From the sequence record MF158045: a DNA stretch of 64,000 nt; one strand, given 5' to 3'. Source of the DNA: Shigella phage Sf22. Below the pieces are notes generated by a model, which ran no database searches, was not told the origin of the DNA, and was given only the letters and a program-made list of their open reading frames with translations. The position numbers and the translations under genes were made by a program. Shown in pieces: positions 56,545 to 64,000 of this stretch; the first letter of the stretch is position 1; the number at the start of each line of letters is the position of its first letter.

Positions 56545-57015
56545 TTAATCATGTGTCCACACCCCATCGGTATTTGACCAAAGTCGCTGATTATCTGATC
56601 CTCGCCACAGCTTTTTGGTCGGAAGATTTTTCTCATACTTCCCATCAATAATAACATCAACATATTTAAGCATTTCTAGTTGTTTAATATCTTCAAACTT
56701 ATATCCTGTCCACAACCAAATGCTTTTACTGGGATAAAGATTTTTTACTGTTTGAACGATGCAATGAATAACATCTCGGTTATCAGGATAGAGAGGGTCT
56801 CCTCCAGTTATAGTTAATCCTTCTATATAATCATTATTCAAACATTCAATTAATTGCTCTAGTGTTTCACCAGTGAATGGAATACCATTTCTAGCATTCC
56901 ATGTTGATTTATTATAACACCCTTCACATTTATGCAAACAACCTGTAACGAAAAGAACGACCCTGCAACCAGGGCCATTCACAAAATCACAGGGATAAAA
57001 TCTATCGTAATTCAT
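56545..57015 (-). CDS. nrdG: Anaerobic ribonucleotide reductase activating protein NrdG (radical SAM)
   Basis: 156 aa; radical SAM cluster motif CLHKCEGC; overlaps nrdD stop. Confidence 0.9.
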   Translation of the reverse strand: MNYDRFYPCDFVNGPGCRVVLFVTGCLHKCEGCYNKSTWNARNGIPFTGETLEQLIECLNNDYIEGLTITGGDPLYPDNRDVIHCIVQTVKNLYPSKSIWLWTGYKFEDIKQLEMLKYVDVIIDGKYEKNLPTKKLWRGSDNQRLWSNTDGVWTHD

Positions 57016-58829
57016 TGGTGTTTAACCCTATGCATGATTTCTTTATTTTTACCGAGATTAAATCCGCGCTCGTTCGGATTTCCCAAATAACCACATGTTC
57101 TTCTTATGGTATTCATCTTTTTAGGATCAGTTTCTCCACAAATAGAACAAACAAATCCGTTTTCAGTAGGAGTCATTTCATGGGTACTTCCACATGTAAA
57201 ACATTTATCTACTGGCATATTAACACCAAAATAATCTAAATGTTGTGCAGCATAATCCCATACGGCCTCAAGACCTTTTAAGTTATTTTTCATATCAGGA
57301 AGTTCAACATAAGAAATGTGACCACCTGTCGCAATGAAATGATATGGCGCTTCACGAGAAATCTTTTCAAACGGAGTAATATTTTCTTCTACTGAAACAT
57401 GGAAACTGTTAGTGTACCAGCCTTTATCGGTAACATCTTTTACACTTCCATATTTTTCTGTATCAAGTTTACAGAAGCGATAACAAAGGTTTTCAGCAGG
57501 AGTCGAATATAAACTAAAAGCAAATCCAGTTCTTTCAGTCCACTGTTTAAGATGAGCATTCATTTTAGTTAAAATTTCTCGTCCAATATCACGACCGACA
57601 AGAATATTCAATTCGTGAATACCAATGTATCCTAAAGACACTGAACTTCTACCGTTTTTAAATAACTCAATTATGTCGTCATCAGGTTTAAGACGAACCC
57701 CGAATGCACCTTCTTGGTAAAGAATAGGAGCAACAGTAGCTTTAACTCCTTTTAAGGAACTAATTCTACACATCAAAGCTTCAAAACATAAATCCATTCG
57801 TTCATTGAATAATTCAGCAAATTTCTGTTCATTGAACTGTGTTCCAATATAAGAATCTAACGCGATGCGAGGAAGATTCAGTGTTACAACACCAAGATTA
57901 TTACGTCCATCAAGAATTTCATTACCAGTCGAATCTTTCCATACGCTCAAGAAACTACGGCATCCCATCGGAGAAACAGGAACAGATGAACCAGTGATAG
58001 CTTTATTGTTCTTAGCTGAAATAATATCAGGATACATCCTTTTGCTTGCACACTCTAGAGCAAGTTGCTTAATGTCGTAATTCGGATCGTCTTTATAAAG
58101 ATTAACGCCTTCTTCAACGAACATAACAAGCTTAGGGAAAATAGGAGTTATTCCATCACGACCAAGACCTTTAATACGATTTTTCAGAATTGCTTTCTGA
58201 ATCATTCGTTCAGTCCAGTCAGTTCCCGTACCAAATGTAATTGTTACAAAAGGCGTTTGTCCGTTTGAACTAAAGAGAGTATTTACTTCATATTCATAAG
58301 CTTGGAATGCATCGTATACGTCTTTTTCTGTTTTAGATTGAGCATAATTCAACGCATCAGCGATTTGCCATTTTTCTGCATCCTCAATATGTTTTGCATA
58401 GGTGCGTTTAACATAAGGAGAAAGTACTTTATCTACATTCGCAAAAGTCGTTCCGCCATATTGATGGGAAGCAACTTGCGCAGTAATTTGTGCCATAATT
58501 GCAGTAGCAACGCCAATTGATTTAGGAGTTTCAATCTGTGCATTACCAAGCTTAAATCCGTTCTCAAGCATTCCTTTTAAATCTACTAAACAGCAATTAG
58601 TAAATGGAAGAGCAGGGGAATAATCAATATCATGGAAATGAATAATTCCGCTTTCATGCGCTTTCATAATAAAAGACGGGACCATATTTTTGGCAATGTG
58701 TTTAGACACAATACCAGCCATAAGGTCCCGTTGAGTTGGAAAAACACGAGAATCTTTATTAGCATTCTCGTTTAAAAGGTCTTTATTAGTTTTATGAATC
58801 AATCCTTCAATTTCTTTTTCAATTGTCAT
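57012..58829 (-). CDS. nrdD: Anaerobic ribonucleoside-triphosphate reductase NrdD (uninterrupted)
   Basis: 605 aa; C-terminal glycyl-radical motif RTCGYLG and zinc ribbon CFTCG...CSICG; single continuous frame. Confidence 0.95.
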   Translation of the reverse strand: MTIEKEIEGLIHKTNKDLLNENANKDSRVFPTQRDLMAGIVSKHIAKNMVPSFIMKAHESGIIHFHDIDYSPALPFTNCCLVDLKGMLENGFKLGNAQIETPKSIGVATAIMAQITAQVASHQYGGTTFANVDKVLSPYVKRTYAKHIEDAEKWQIADALNYAQSKTEKDVYDAFQAYEYEVNTLFSSNGQTPFVTITFGTGTDWTERMIQKAILKNRIKGLGRDGITPIFPKLVMFVEEGVNLYKDDPNYDIKQLALECASKRMYPDIISAKNNKAITGSSVPVSPMGCRSFLSVWKDSTGNEILDGRNNLGVVTLNLPRIALDSYIGTQFNEQKFAELFNERMDLCFEALMCRISSLKGVKATVAPILYQEGAFGVRLKPDDDIIELFKNGRSSVSLGYIGIHELNILVGRDIGREILTKMNAHLKQWTERTGFAFSLYSTPAENLCYRFCKLDTEKYGSVKDVTDKGWYTNSFHVSVEENITPFEKISREAPYHFIATGGHISYVELPDMKNNLKGLEAVWDYAAQHLDYFGVNMPVDKCFTCGSTHEMTPTENGFVCSICGETDPKKMNTIRRTCGYLGNPNERGFNLGKNKEIMHRVKHQ

Positions 58830-59918: not shown

Positions 59919-60239
59919 TTATAGCGTAATCCATTCTCGTACTGTCTGAGTTACTACACGTTCATGGGGCTCGACTAGTTCAACAGTCGGAACTGCATAA
60001 TACCAGTCAGAATGATAAGAACCTGACCGAGATTCATTTACAGCCACATGTACATTATGTTTTGGACTAAAGTAAACACACTGACGATATTGACATTTAC
60101 CATCTTGCACCCAGTCTTCTATTTCGACAGGTTTAAGATAATCGGAAAAATCGAAATCATAGTTTTCCGAAAATGCATCATGGTCTTCAATGATTTCGCT
60201 CAGAACTGCATCAACATCTAATTTATTTTCAATAGTCAT
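59919..60239 (-). CDS. Hypothetical protein (106 aa)
   Basis: ORF track. Confidence 0.5.
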   Translation of the reverse strand: MTIENKLDVDAVLSEIIEDHDAFSENYDFDFSDYLKPVEIEDWVQDGKCQYRQCVYFSPKHNVHVAVNESRSGSYHSDWYYAVPTVELVEPHERVVTQTVREWITL

Positions 60240-60422
60240 TTTTCACCAATTAATTTCGCAATTTATTAAGTTCTTCATCATCAATCCAGGATTCTAGTCC
60301 TGATGGCAGGGCACATTCAATTTCCCAAAGAAGTTCTTCAATTTTCTGAAGACGTTCTAGTTCTTCGGCTGGAATAGCAACCATTGACGGAGCTCGTGAT
60401 ACATTAATATCGTAAATCATAT

Positions 60423-60638
60423 TTACCCCAATTTAACCATACAATCGCCGTATTTCCACTTAGAAATAGACTTTTCACCATTAGAATAATAAACTTCGAG
60501 TTTAGCACGATTATTTTTAATTTGAATAACCTTTGCTGTCATCAAAGTTCCATACCCATAATAAACTGCAACTTCATCACCTACATATACCGCGCTTCCA
60601 CGATAATCATGGATATAATCAGTTCCTTCGAACATCAT
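60423..60638 (-). CDS. Hypothetical protein (71 aa)
   Basis: ORF track; 4-nt overlap with nrdC. Confidence 0.5.
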   Translation of the reverse strand: MMFEGTDYIHDYRGSAVYVGDEVAVYYGYGTLMTAKVIQIKNNRAKLEVYYSNGEKSISKWKYGDCMVKLG

Positions 60639-60898
60639 TTAAAGTATTCTCGCAGTTGGTCAAATCCACCAATATGACTTCCATCAGGAGCAAATACCTG
60701 AGGCATTGTCAAGCCGATTTGAGTATCACGACCTAGTTTAGTCAGAAGCTCAGCGATTTTCTCATCATCAAAAACACCTTTTTCCGGCATAATGTTGATA
60801 AATTCAAACGGCTGTTTCTTCACAGTCAAAAGACGTTTTGCATTATCGCAATACACGCATTTATGAATGTTGCTATCATAACCATATACTTTAAACAT
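60635..60898 (-). CDS. nrdC: Thioredoxin/glutaredoxin NrdC
   Basis: 87 aa; redox motif CVYC; matches T4 NrdC as recalled. Confidence 0.85.
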   Translation of the reverse strand: MFKVYGYDSNIHKCVYCDNAKRLLTVKKQPFEFINIMPEKGVFDDEKIAELLTKLGRDTQIGLTMPQVFAPDGSHIGGFDQLREYFK

Positions 60899-60899
60899 A

Positions 60900-61142
60900 T
60901 TATTCCTTAATTCCTAGTACTTGTTTAAAAGTCTCGTCGTAATCAAGACTTTGGCCCGTTTGTTCTTTATGTTTGTATATAATATCACTTACTTCTGATA
61001 GCATATTTTTATATGAACGAGTTAAAGCAGATTTAAGCACGCTGTATCTATCAGGAAATTTACCATGTTCATTATAATAAGCTATTGCTAATTCACGGAC
61101 TGCCTTTTCAGCAGTCTCCATATATTCTTTACGCTTGGTCAT
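60900..61142 (-). CDS. Hypothetical protein (about 80 aa)
   Basis: Internal start [18 protein letters not shown]; the ORF-track 133-aa frame overlaps the upstream ORF. Confidence 0.4.
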
Positions 61143-61446
61143 TTTCTTCTCGGTCAAATCGGTGTTTACAATGGCGACATTTATAACGAAGATTATTAGT
61201 CTGCCAATGGACCAATTGCACCTGTTCAGTTCCACATTCAGGGCAATTAGGAACGTTTTTAGAAGCCCTTTCGCGACGTTCAACCATAGCCATAATAGCA
61301 TCCCATGCTGGAGGTTTAAAGTCTAAATCATCACAACCATGAATCTTTCCACGCATTTCCAGATCGTCTTCTTCACCAGCCATAATAATTTTAATTAGAC
61401 TGGAATTACTTGAAGCTGCAATATCTTCTAATAGACGCTTTTTCAT
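61129..61446 (-). CDS. Zinc-ribbon protein (105 aa)
   Basis: ORF track; C-terminal CPECG...CRHCKH four-Cys pattern. Confidence 0.5.
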
Positions 61447-62372
61447 TTCAATACCTCAATAGCATTACGTAAACCATTTGCTTTTGCATTAAGAGCTTTT
61501 AACAATTTGGTGTGTTCGGCAATCTGGGCTTCAACTTCAATCAAACGGGCATTGAGATATTCACGTTCTTCACTCAGATTATCAACCTTTTCTACTTTAG
61601 GTTCTTTTACAACTGTCTTATATGTATTAGGGTTCTTCAGTTTAATTAGAATGCGTGAACTGTATAACATTGAACCATTATCTTCGGTTTCGTCATACAT
61701 TTCCACTACGTCCATAATTTTTAACATCATGCGGAGTTTATAAGACAACGAACGAATAGTTTTGTTGTGCTTATTAATTTCTTTAGCTGTCATGGTGCCA
61801 AGATTACGTGAGTAATAATAAGGAACCTGGATATTAATTAATACTGATGAACCACCTGGCTTGTGTGTTACTTCATCAGCAATAACCCAGTCCTTAACAT
61901 GAACTGTATTTGTACGGTCATCGCCCGCGGTAAATAGTTTGCGAGCATGCTTAAAAAGCATATTCACTTGGTCATTGAATTGACAAGCAAATTTATCAGC
62001 AAATTTAGTTTCAGGAATGGTAGAAAACCAATCAGCCAAATGAGTCTTTTTAACATCATTAACAATAGTAAATTCAACCAAATCGGTTATAGATGTCTCA
62101 GATTTAATAAAGCTCGGCTTCATAAAGTTTTTAATGTTCTCATGAGCTACAGTAGAAGATAACATACGAGAACGTTTAAACCATTCAAGCAAATTGCCTA
62201 ACGAATGAGAATAAGCGTTTTGAGTATCTTTACAGATATGATTTTCCTGACCAACATATTGAAGGAAATCACGAAGAATATTATTGATTACTGCTCTGTG
62301 CCCGATCTGATAATTACGGTGTTTAGTAATAAGACTGTCAAAATAATCAATATAATGTTTACGAGTTTTCAT
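61443..62372 (-). CDS. Hypothetical protein (309 aa) with C-terminal coiled-coil
   Basis: ORF track; heptad-like C-terminus; nrdC-distal region. Confidence 0.55.
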   Translation of the reverse strand: MKTRKHYIDYFDSLITKHRNYQIGHRAVINNILRDFLQYVGQENHICKDTQNAYSHSLGNLLEWFKRSRMLSSTVAHENIKNFMKPSFIKSETSITDLVEFTIVNDVKKTHLADWFSTIPETKFADKFACQFNDQVNMLFKHARKLFTAGDDRTNTVHVKDWVIADEVTHKPGGSSVLINIQVPYYYSRNLGTMTAKEINKHNKTIRSLSYKLRMMLKIMDVVEMYDETEDNGSMLYSSRILIKLKNPNTYKTVVKEPKVEKVDNLSEEREYLNARLIEVEAQIAEHTKLLKALNAKANGLRNAIEVLK

Positions 62373-62424
62373 ATTCTTCTCACTTGGTTAATGGTTTATA
62401 CTCCGAGCCATCCTTGGCTTTAAA

Positions 62425-63426
62425 TTACTTAATTAACTGTAAAGCTTGTTCAAGACGATCAAGACGATTAACGGATTCTTCCCAAATCTTTTTAGCCTGC
62501 TCATATTCTTTCTGCGCTTTATTAGAAATTTCTAGAACTTCTTTATAAGCTTTTTCTAATGCAATAACTTCTGGACGAATTTCTACCGGTTCAGGTGAAT
62601 CATCAAGACATTCCATTAGTTCCTCAAGGGTAGTTTCTTCTTTAGGAGTATTCACAATTTCATCACATTTTTGTTGGTAAATTTCTTTACTAGTAGGTGA
62701 ATAAGCACATTTCACTTCACGAAGACTAATTACAATTTTATATCCTTCCCATCCGCATATATTCTTAAAAGGATATGTATGAATATTTTCTACTGTTTCC
62801 ATACAAAGTAATGCAGTCTCTAACTGACGAGTTATAGTGCTAGCAATTGAGAAAAATTTATTAATATTCTTTTGGTTAGCGTTTGGTGTAAAAAATCCAT
62901 AATTCACAAAAATAGCTACTTTATTTTCATCAAGCTCATATTCTTTTACGATAATCATATCAGAAGCCAAAGGATGAATTTGACGATAATCGCCATAACA
63001 TAATTTAGAAGCTGATTTTAGAATTTGTCCTTTGAAAAGTCTGAAATTACTAATCCAACGACGAGTAAAAATATTCTCAGGGTCTTCTTTATTATTAAGA
63101 TGATAAGAATTAACATCACCGAACCAATTATATCCTACTACATCTTTGGTTCGTTTAATTTCTTTCCCAAAATTACCAAGAATATCCCGATTAACCAAAT
63201 ATGAAAGAAGACGAGACTCTTTAAAAGTTTTCTTGATAACATCTTTATCTACACGGCTAGAAATTTTACGAATTTCATGAATAAATTTAGTAGAAGAAAC
63301 AATACTTGCATCAACACTATTGAGCCATTGATTGATAATAGAAAGAACGATATTTTGACCAAACATCGGTATAGCTTTATCATCAATAACGCTATTGAAT
63401 GATTTGATATATTCGTTACGAGTCAT
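62425..63426 (-). CDS. Hypothetical protein (333 aa)
   Basis: Start at MTRNEYIKSF preceded by SD GAGGAG and a consensus early promoter; the ORF-track 5-prime extension runs through the promoter. Confidence 0.55.
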   Translation of the reverse strand: MTRNEYIKSFNSVIDDKAIPMFGQNIVLSIINQWLNSVDASIVSSTKFIHEIRKISSRVDKDVIKKTFKESRLLSYLVNRDILGNFGKEIKRTKDVVGYNWFGDVNSYHLNNKEDPENIFTRRWISNFRLFKGQILKSASKLCYGDYRQIHPLASDMIIVKEYELDENKVAIFVNYGFFTPNANQKNINKFFSIASTITRQLETALLCMETVENIHTYPFKNICGWEGYKIVISLREVKCAYSPTSKEIYQQKCDEIVNTPKEETTLEELMECLDDSPEPVEIRPEVIALEKAYKEVLEISNKAQKEYEQAKKIWEESVNRLDRLEQALQLIK

Positions 63427-63454
63427 ATTAATCTCCTCAGTAGAAAGTAAGAAC

Positions 63455-63484
63455 ATTATACCACATCCTTGTGGCAAAGTAAAC
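63455..63484 (-). promoter_or_regulatory. T4-type early promoter upstream of ORF 62425-63426
   Basis: Minus strand GTTTAC, 18 nt, TGgTATAAT; nearly identical to the promoter at 18728-18756. Confidence 0.75.
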
Positions 63485-63948
63485 TAGTTCAGTGCATTTA
63501 GTGCATTGTTCAGTTTAGAACGTTGCTTCGTGAGATTTTTGACTTTTTCTTGTGCTTTTTCTAGCATCTTTTCAGCTTCTAACACTTCATTGGTCGCTTT
63601 AACGAGTTCATCATCTACTGCCTTAAGGGACTTCTCAATCGCATCCGCGTGCCATTTTTCAACAGGTTTAAGACTCGGATTTTCAATAGGAAGAAAATTC
63701 ACTTTATTGAATTTCCATGCATCTTTATTACCTGAACTATACATCCAAAATTTAGGATCATTTGACGAGTAATTAGATAAATTTAAGTTATCTTGCACTT
63801 CCTGCTTTTTCTCTTGCGGGACTTCGTCCTTTCTCAAAAAATCGTATTTAAATGAAACGATCATATCAAGTTCATATGTTGTCGTATCTAATTTAAATCG
63901 TTCGAAATGCGGCGAAATCTTAGATTGAACAGCAGCAACAACATCCAT
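63484..63948 (-). CDS. Hypothetical protein (154 aa) with coiled-coil C-terminus
   Basis: ORF track; in-frame stop upstream of the Met, so it is complete within the window. Confidence 0.5.
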   Translation of the reverse strand: MDVVAAVQSKISPHFERFKLDTTTYELDMIVSFKYDFLRKDEVPQEKKQEVQDNLNLSNYSSNDPKFWMYSSGNKDAWKFNKVNFLPIENPSLKPVEKWHADAIEKSLKAVDDELVKATNEVLEAEKMLEKAQEKVKNLTKQRSKLNNALNALN

Positions 63949-64000
63949 ATACTTAAATGCTTCTGTCAGCTGTGATTTAAGACATTCACAAATTGAAAGA

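Follow-up and report, generated by a model that had tools for sequence, protein, structure and literature searches.

Remote homology of the T4-like early proteins NrdC.3 and NrdC.4 to the anti-Dsr1 protein NrdC.5 suggests a putative role in counter-defence

Introduction

What do the early genes that lie beside nrdC contribute to a T4-like phage? Even in T4, the reference phage, roughly half of the genes have no known function, and the block from nrdC to tk is among the largest groups of such genes. In the window analyzed here, a stretch of 64,000 nucleotides (nt) of Shigella phage Sf22 (sequence record MF158045), three open reading frames (ORFs) of this block occupy 61129-61446, 61443-62372 and 62425-63426 on the minus strand, where a first-pass annotation made from the sequence alone had placed them. 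The encoded proteins of 105, 309 and 333 amino acids (aa) are the orthologs of T4 nrdC.2, nrdC.3 and nrdC.4 (NP_049700, NP_049701 and NP_049702, respectively). The ORFs had been described as unrecognised, and a comparison with the T4 nrdC.10 and nrdC.11 region had been proposed. Those are the wrong genes, and the three ORFs are already catalogued as T4 nrdC.2-nrdC.4, in PHROGs 1474 and 1435 (both annotated ‘unknown function’) and Pfam PF26897; the feature is therefore not new.

Literature searches with nrdC.2-nrdC.11, PF26897, DUF7235 and the accessions turned up no study in which the function of nrdC.2, nrdC.3 or nrdC.4 was investigated. Three observations may be new, none of them having been found described in the literature searched: a superfamily link of nrdC.3 and nrdC.4 to nrdC.5, an allelic cassette in nrdC.3 and a conserved coupling of nrdC.2. 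The first makes two 300 aa T4 proteins without assigned function, carried by hundreds of therapeutic-candidate T-even phages, directly testable, and NrdC.3 and NrdC.4 are described here as putative additions to the NrdC.5 type of accessory anti-defence protein in T-even phages.

Relationship of NrdC.3 and NrdC.4 to NrdC.5

The products of nrdC.4 (62425-63426, minus strand; 333 aa from its ATG) and nrdC.3 (61443-62372, minus strand; 309 aa) both matched PHROG 1435 over their full lengths (E=8.5e-169 and E=7.8e-116, respectively), and PF26897 is precomputed on all close homologs of either protein. BLASTP aligned the two with 24% identity (E=3e-6), and 19 alignment columns, including an N-terminal TR..YI motif, were invariant over both subfamilies. 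By these sequence comparisons, NrdC.3 and NrdC.4 are diverged tandem paralogs.

The adjoining gene of the same early unit is nrdC.5, the 3′ part of which (63484-64000, minus strand) is cut by the window end. It was recognized from the ORF at 63484-63948, which matched PF23882 (DUF7235) with E=1e-117; the entire gene is present in phages GiZh, Shfl2 and T4. Direct searches did not connect this protein with its neighbors: BLASTP between NrdC.3 or NrdC.4 and NrdC.5 was not significant, and PF23882 gave no match on NrdC.3 or NrdC.4 at E up to 1, against 393 bits on NrdC.5. Profile-profile comparison with hhalign gave a probability of 66.6% in a round with one sequence and 89.7% with five; with alignments to which bridging members had been added, it gave 98.2% (E=4e-14) over 255 collinear columns reaching the C-terminus. 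The reversed alignment used as a control scored 1.1%, and ten column shuffles 0.1% or less. One distant bridging member, P0164, matched both PHROG 2351, the NrdC.5 family (E=4e-11, mostly through the C-terminal helix), and PHROG 1435 (E=2e-9, full length). These profile comparisons confidently place NrdC.3, NrdC.4 and NrdC.5 in one superfamily. The first-pass annotation had set its own view against any confident homology to a characterised protein, and this was found in part: the homology to NrdC.5 is confident, while NrdC.5 is characterised by phenotype and not by mechanism.

All three proteins are built alike: a conserved (K)TRxxYI motif at the N-terminus leads into a helical domain that varies fast, followed by an alpha/beta core, a flexible linker and, at the end, a conserved heptad helix. 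In the AlphaFold2 model of NrdC.4 (predicted local distance difference test score, pLDDT, of 82), these parts correspond to a helical N-terminal domain (residues 3-84), the core (88-235), a disordered linker (260-283) and a C-terminal helix of 48 residues (285-332). The heptad helix is encoded at 62428-62574 in nrdC.4 (residues 285-333, from the model, conservation and a heptad test) and at 61446-61580 in nrdC.3 (about residues 265-309, from the alignment and heptad test), both on the minus strand. Heptad periodicity in the last 42 residues exceeded that of shuffled sequences in NrdC.3 (p=0.026), NrdC.4 (p=0.004) and NrdC.5 (p<0.0005), and all three proteins end in L..A(L/I)..L(K/N). The long coiled-coil C-terminus previously proposed for the 309-aa protein is thus borne out as an amphipathic heptad helix, and is likewise present in the 333-aa protein and NrdC.5. 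T4 NrdC.5 resembles the paralogs further in its length (334-340 aa), its KTR motif, its core and its heptad helix ending in L..AL..L; it differs in sharing only about 17% identity with them and in belonging to another Pfam and PHROG family.

The two larger proteins had been said to contain no placeable motifs, and both the paralogy and the remote homology to nrdC.5 had been overlooked. Pfam, NCBIfam, PADLOC and PDB sequence searches of all three proteins returned sub-threshold matches only. No PADLOC model matched significantly; the only hits were to Cas12 TNB, at the level of a zinc ribbon (E about 3e-4), and to BrxC, at the level of a coiled coil (E=0.0045). An N-terminal SAM-like domain of tyrosine recombinases, confined to NrdC.3 residues 30-86, was rejected with 13.1 bits against a cut-off of 22.3 (Pfam) and 16.9 against 279 (NCBIfam).

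NrdC.6 was considered as a fourth paralog and rejected, as hhalign gave less than 1% against both subfamilies; it served as the negative control. A superfamily member of Kosakonia phage 305 (L010 2488-3504) also touched the NrdC.6 family, phrog_2257, over residues 150-336 (E=4.5e-6). From this match NrdC.6 may be a still more distant relative, against which the hhalign result stands.

Distribution and turnover of the superfamily

A HMMER profile search of 1.84 billion representative sequences returned 11 clusters only, all of them phage family members or fragments; two further hits, P0099 and P0100, were disregarded as short local matches inside unrelated hydrolase and oxidoreductase ORFs. Because so few clusters were recovered, the NrdC.3/4/5 superfamily is, at the sequence level, confined to T4-like phages (Straboviridae). 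The structural survey covered viral models, in which Foldseek found 19 matches at E<=0.001, all uncharacterised and 155-374 aa long, most of them around 300-370 aa. Those with names came from Straboviridae of Klebsiella, Enterobacter, Pectobacterium, Erwinia, Serratia, Yersinia and Acinetobacter, and Aeromonas phage Aeh1 followed at E=0.0098. At least seven PHROGs (1435, 2351, 26858, 33957, 23608, 12512 and 31182) are cross-linked by weak matches. Phage S16 gp52.4 is only a probable member, on weak sequence evidence (7-12%); it belongs to PHROG 12512, which is touched by NrdC.5 and by an Erwinia phage protein.

Content differs between genera. Tequatrovirus carries the nrdC.3 type, the nrdC.4 type and an nrdC.5-like gene; Mosigvirus has the nrdC.3 type and an nrdC.5-like gene without the nrdC.4 type; and Dhakavirus and Gaprivervirus have the nrdC.4 type and an nrdC.5-like gene without the nrdC.3 type. 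In Acinetobacter phage Acj61, two structural matches of 330 and 304 aa fit the adjacent genes p120 and p121 by size, between nrdC and nrdC.10. The Acj61 record (L014 1229-3938) also contains a nicotinamide phosphoribosyltransferase gene adjoining a ribose-phosphate pyrophosphokinase gene. This pair looks like the NAD+ reconstitution route that phages use against NADase defences, in the same genome as a possible anti-SIR2 family.

A conserved protein of about 260 aa (MxxxIINxIxEENRxA...KRPSxV) was seen just upstream of the superfamily member in phages of Klebsiella (L008 2078-2866), Salmonella (S16; L006 2135-2917), Kosakonia (L010 998-1768, with two small ORFs between) and Erwinia (L012 1525-2298). 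By hhalign, it showed no relationship to NrdC.3/4/5, and no function is annotated for it.

The nrdC.3 gene of the window differs strongly from that of T4, to which it has 61.6% protein identity with a synonymous divergence (dS) above 1, whereas nrdC, nrdC.1, nrdC.2 and nrdC.4 are 92-100% identical to their T4 counterparts (92% for nrdC.2 and 97.3% for nrdC.4, which also shares promoter and position with T4). The divergence is contained in a cassette at 61466-62302 (minus strand), which is 40-80% identical to T4 at the nucleotide level between flanks of 93-100%. Its edges, at about 62302 and 61466, are sharp and leave roughly 24 codons at the start of the gene and a few at its end unaffected. 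nrdC.2 carries a second, small divergent patch in its hinge (61345-61286). The allele in the window is nearer the Mosigvirus ortholog (75%) than that of T4 (62%), and identity is bimodal over the phage records, 356 of which are at 90% or more, 4 at 80-90% and 271 at 60-80%. In nrdC.4, substitutions within Tequatrovirus are concentrated in residues 11-65, and the N-terminal motif and C-terminal helix are nearly fixed.

Gross rearrangements are also found. In P0097, a natural fusion protein, residues 146-272 of NrdC.5 are joined out of register to residues 129-309 of NrdC.3; nrdC.4 is deleted, and the junction falls at a ‘(K/Q)VN’ microhomology shared by both parts. Phages T2, G8, ACG-C40 and Manna retain only a truncated nrdC.4 or C-terminal remnants of nrdC.3 or nrdC.4. 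Taken with the cassette alleles and the genus-specific content, these sequences show signs of rapid turnover of the locus. The truncated and fused copies, and the fact that the genes can be deleted in the laboratory, would also be expected if the paralogs were decaying duplicates with no current function. That reading is scarcely credible: full-length ORFs persist in hundreds of genomes with pairwise ratios of nonsynonymous to synonymous substitution (dN/dS) of 0.06-0.33, the promoter and ribosome-binding site are conserved, and even Acinetobacter phages keep the superfamily at this locus.

A possible counter-defence role for NrdC.3 and NrdC.4

NrdC.5 is the only characterised member of the superfamily. 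When T4 nrdC.5 is supplied on a plasmid, a T4 deletion clone plates again on cells that carry the ECOR17 dsr1 gene (Srikant et al. 2022, PMC9391042). The SIR2 NADase Dsr1 has a sensor domain that detects the phage major capsid protein, and this domain is common to Avs7 and thousands of other defence proteins (PMC13581612). As nrdC.1-6 can be deleted from T4 (PMC9825161), nrdC.3, nrdC.4 and nrdC.2 are dispensable in the laboratory. A further anti-defence gene lies 1.2 kb away: the 106-aa 49.2 ORF (59919-60239, minus strand) is 96% identical to T4 gp49.2, which inhibits the OLD defence nuclease (PMC13096335). The GiZh record has no annotated gene at the corresponding stretch (L001 2336-2650).

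NrdC.3 and NrdC.4 most likely act in counter-defence by binding host immune proteins directly (rough probability 0.45-0.5). This reading is favored by analogy with NrdC.5, because of the homology of the paralogs to it, their early expression, dispensability and confinement to phages, the cassette variation and the neighboring anti-OLD gene. The anti-defence screening suggested by the first-pass annotation fits the homology to an anti-Dsr1 gene.

nrdC.4, nrdC.3 and nrdC.2 are transcribed from the early promoter before nrdC.4, with transcription running on into nrdC.1 and nrdC. In a counter-defence role, NrdC.3 and NrdC.4 would be made immediately after infection. They would act as stoichiometric inhibitors of host immune proteins, like NrdC.5, the C-terminal helix mediating oligomerisation and the variable N-terminal and core surfaces determining target specificity; each paralog and allele would be matched to a defence protein, or variant of one, of its own. 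NrdC.2 might assist the paralog to which it is coupled, or have a separate nucleic-acid-binding role. The domain through which Dsr1 senses the major capsid protein, a late product, is found in many other defence proteins; from this comes the most specific guess, that the paralogs pre-occupy capsid-type sensors before the capsid protein appears. The fullest version of this model is distinctly unlikely as a whole: NrdC.3/4/5 would be phage-specific early ‘sensor blockers’, i.e., coiled-coil oligomers that plug different Avs7/Dsr1-type capsid-sensing receptors, or receptors for other structural proteins, with alleles and paralogs exchanged as cassettes among T4-like genera so as to keep pace with host immunity, and with NrdC.2 as a translationally coupled cofactor.

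Two sets of known systems can be compared with this proposal. DSAD1, the SPbeta-group inhibitor of DSR2 (PMC10973363, PMC10981675), is functionally analogous in that a phage uses it to neutralise a SIR2-type NADase sensing a late structural protein; it comes from an unrelated phage group, nothing suggests homology, and the two are likened by function only. The T-even anti-defence genes gp49.2, TifA, Dmd, AdfA and IPI-III are likewise non-essential, early, clustered and variable between close relatives, but their products are much smaller, have unrelated folds, and none forms a three-paralog array.

Several points weigh against a counter-defence role. The function of NrdC.3 and NrdC.4 is extrapolated from a single distant paralog of about 17% identity, and the demonstrated phenotype belongs to NrdC.5: nrdC.5 alone sufficed to restore growth on Dsr1, with NrdC.3 and NrdC.4 not required (PMC9391042). 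The dN/dS ratios are well below 1 overall and give no direct sign of positive selection, and the allelic dimorphism of nrdC.3 could have arisen from recombination history alone. In addition, NrdC.2 has a far wider distribution than the paralogs, is much more tightly conserved and also occurs without them, which makes an obligatory partnership less likely.

Allelic replacement and loss would be expected, too, if the phage were escaping recognition, i.e., if the paralogs were themselves sensed by the host or mimicked conserved virion proteins, so that they served as triggers or decoys and diversified to avoid detection. Host receptors do sense many core phage proteins (PMC13581612). This explanation is improbable, as NrdC.5 benefits the phage when provided in trans, which is the behavior of an inhibitor.

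If the counter-defence reading is true, the alleles raise the question of whether NrdC.3 and NrdC.4 decide which defence-carrying strains of E. coli, Shigella and Yersinia are infected. Allele typing at the nrdC.3/nrdC.4 locus would then help to predict host range, and the switching off of Dsr1-like receptors could be studied with the proteins as a natural inhibitor series. If it is not true, the locus holds conserved accessory genes of an ordinary kind.

The zinc-ribbon protein NrdC.2

The third gene, nrdC.2 (61129-61446, minus strand; 105 aa), was identified by a match to PHROG 1474 over residues 1-104 (E=1e-45), 92% identity to NP_049700 and synteny. Its conserved core, residues 48-100 (61147-61305, minus strand), was defined from the alignment and the AlphaFold2 model as a helix followed by a CxxC-x18-CxxC ribbon. 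Cysteines 68, 71, 90 and 93 (CPEC-x18-CRHC) were invariant in 22 diverse homologs, and the model contained a helix at 48-63 and three strands at 76-80, 85-90 and 96-100 with pLDDT values of 86-91, upholding the four-cysteine zinc ribbon that had been noted at the C-terminus of this protein. The N-terminal half is acidic, variable and modeled with low confidence. With two invariant CxxC knuckles on a modeled three-stranded ribbon, NrdC.2 fits the generic zinc-ribbon class, and zinc binding is predicted.

In its CxxC-x18-CxxC spacing, three-stranded ribbon and preceding helix, NrdC.2 is like the C-terminal ribbon of TFIIS, the N-terminal ribbons of IS1595 and NrdR, L37Ae and Lar; its family (PHROG 1474) is unlike them in being specific to T4-like phages and in its extra variable, acidic N-terminal half. 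None of TFIIS_C, IS1595, Zn_ribbon_8, Lar, NrdR and DUF7129 reached its curated cut-off. The weak profile matches obtained were to TFIIS_C, IS1595 and Cas12f-TNB, the first of which had already been noted in nrdC.2 by Nolan et al. (2006).

In Tequatro-, Mosig-, Dhaka-, Gapriver-, Jiaoda-, Kanagawa- and Winklervirus, nrdC.2 either starts within the end of a superfamily member or comes shortly after one. Judged from this gene arrangement, NrdC.2 is translationally coupled, across several genera, to whichever paralog precedes it. An obligatory pairing was rejected as not universal, since NrdC.2 occurs without a paralog in Morganella, Aeromonas and Vibrio phages. Upstream of nrdC.2 are instead an nrdC.11-like nucleotidyltransferase and another gene in Morganella phage Rgz1, an unrelated 301 aa protein in Aeromonas phage Aes508, and only small ORFs in the Vibrio phage.

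These properties bear on the main rival to a counter-defence role, in which the genes form a regulatory module for host takeover: NrdC.2 would bind DNA or RNA through its zinc ribbon and, together with the coupled NrdC.3 or NrdC.4, act on core host machinery (transcription, nucleoid or mRNA) instead of immune proteins. Such a module would account for the weak TFIIS_C, IS1595 and Cas12f-TNB matches, for the weak resemblance of NrdC.3 residues 30-86 to the SAM-like DNA-binding domain of tyrosine recombinases (NCBIfam E=0.003, Pfam E=0.12), and for the conservation across genera of the stop/start overlap with nrdC.2. Many T4 early proteins remodel host transcription. The takeover module is nevertheless unlikely, as the paralogs vary too much between close relatives (62% allele identity, genus-specific presence) to have a conserved housekeeping target, and the only characterised relative, NrdC.5, acts on an immune protein. 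The host-mRNA destabilisation phenotype of the tk2 deletion (tk to nrdC.2) is reportedly attributed to srd and not to these genes.

The NrdC.2 ribbon superposed closely on that of NrdR. The genes are situated between nrdD/nrdC and nrdC.11, and Aes508 has its nrdC.2 homolog between nrdD and nrdH. An accessory role in nucleotide metabolism might therefore be considered, with an NrdR-like ribbon interfering with repression by host NrdR, or with the proteins as scaffolds of a complex for dNTP synthesis. No sequence match between NrdC.2 and NrdR was obtained even at E up to 10, an ATP-cone domain is lacking, the genes are dispensable for growth, and the nrdC.x names and ‘thioredoxin’ labels reflect map position only; such a role is quite improbable. 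This, the trigger or decoy explanation and that of decaying duplicates are all less likely than the takeover module.

The ‘thioredoxin’ label is attached to nrdC.2-nrdC.10 in many GenBank records (e.g., KT184311 of GiZh, L001 3530-9386), and PHROG 9774 is named ‘NrdC-like thioredoxin’ although these proteins include no thioredoxin-fold match. A thioredoxin or glutaredoxin identity was rejected here, as no such profile in Pfam or NCBIfam matched any of the three proteins; the models show instead a zinc ribbon in NrdC.2 and a helical and alpha/beta architecture in NrdC.4. The labels are an annotation error propagated from the gene names.

Promoter, ribosome-binding site and intergenic regions

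A promoter scan of 60500-64000 found its best sigma-70-like site at 63455-63483 (minus strand), an early sigma-70 type promoter with the layout TTTACT-17 nt-TATAAT and an extended TG (TG-n-TATAAT). It is identical in T4 and differs by 1 nt in Shfl2. A Shine-Dalgarno sequence, GAGGAG (63433-63438, minus strand), lies 6 nt before the nrdC.4 ATG. The 333-aa ORF had been credited with a perfect early promoter and Shine-Dalgarno sequence; the site agrees with the consensus at 10 of 12 positions, but the -35 hexamer matches at only four of six, and ‘perfect’ is slightly generous. GGAG is the RegB cleavage motif (PMC1702504); as GAGGAG contains it, RegB might cleave the nrdC.4 message there.

Longer versions of nrdC.4, of 350 aa from a TTG start and of 343 aa, were rejected as not credible because their starts fall within or upstream of the promoter. 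The N-terminal start M(K)TR is common to all family members.

A hairpin, CCACAAGGATGTGG, lies inside the spacer of the nrdC.4 promoter (63459-63476, minus strand), and a second, CCAAGGATGG, with the same core, follows the nrdC.4 stop (62403-62417). The latter falls within the 52 nt spacer between nrdC.4 and nrdC.3 (62373-62424, minus strand), which also holds a degenerate promoter-like layout, TTTAAA-18 nt-TATAAA, that aligns loosely with the region of the nrdC.4 promoter. The layout and hairpin are no more than suggestive. A duplicated promoter is not claimed, as the two intergenic regions align only loosely; their shared hairpin core may be a regulatory element, a relic of duplication or chance.

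Gene order and neighboring genes

The window comes from a T4-like phage of the genus Tequatrovirus: by megablast, 60600-64000 matched 694 phage records, the best being phage GiZh at 98.3%. Every gene of this stretch is on the minus strand, and with names and order taken from the Shfl2 and T4 records, transcription passes from nrdC.5 through the early promoter, nrdC.4, the 52 nt spacer, nrdC.3, nrdC.2 and nrdC.1 to nrdC. The genes had been described as downstream of nrdC, which is correct in T4 map order only; by transcription they run toward nrdC and are upstream of it. nrdC.1 (60900-61142, minus strand; 80 aa), identified from the ORF list, synteny and a PHROG search, is the next gene of a tightly packed unit, and nrdC (60635-60898, minus strand) comes after it. 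nrdC.3 and nrdC.2 overlap by 4 nt (ATGA), nrdC.2 and nrdC.1 overlap by 14 nt, and a gap of 1 nt separates nrdC.1 from nrdC. This packing suggests that translation of nrdC.3, nrdC.2, nrdC.1 and nrdC is coupled.

Orthologs of nrdC.4, nrdC.3 and nrdC.2 were found in 552, 652 and 1123 phage records, respectively, and the dN/dS ratios given above indicate purifying selection. A hidden RNA element was rejected, as Rfam gave no match on either strand of 60000-64000 at E up to 1. Judged by their many orthologs, the low dN/dS and the lack of an Rfam match, the three ORFs are real genes and not chance ORFs.

Farther along the same strand, nrdD (57012-58829, minus strand) was compared with L009 2036-4886; because it is here one unbroken ORF of 605 aa, the phage appears to lack the I-TevII-carrying group I intron around which T4 nrdD is joined from two pieces.

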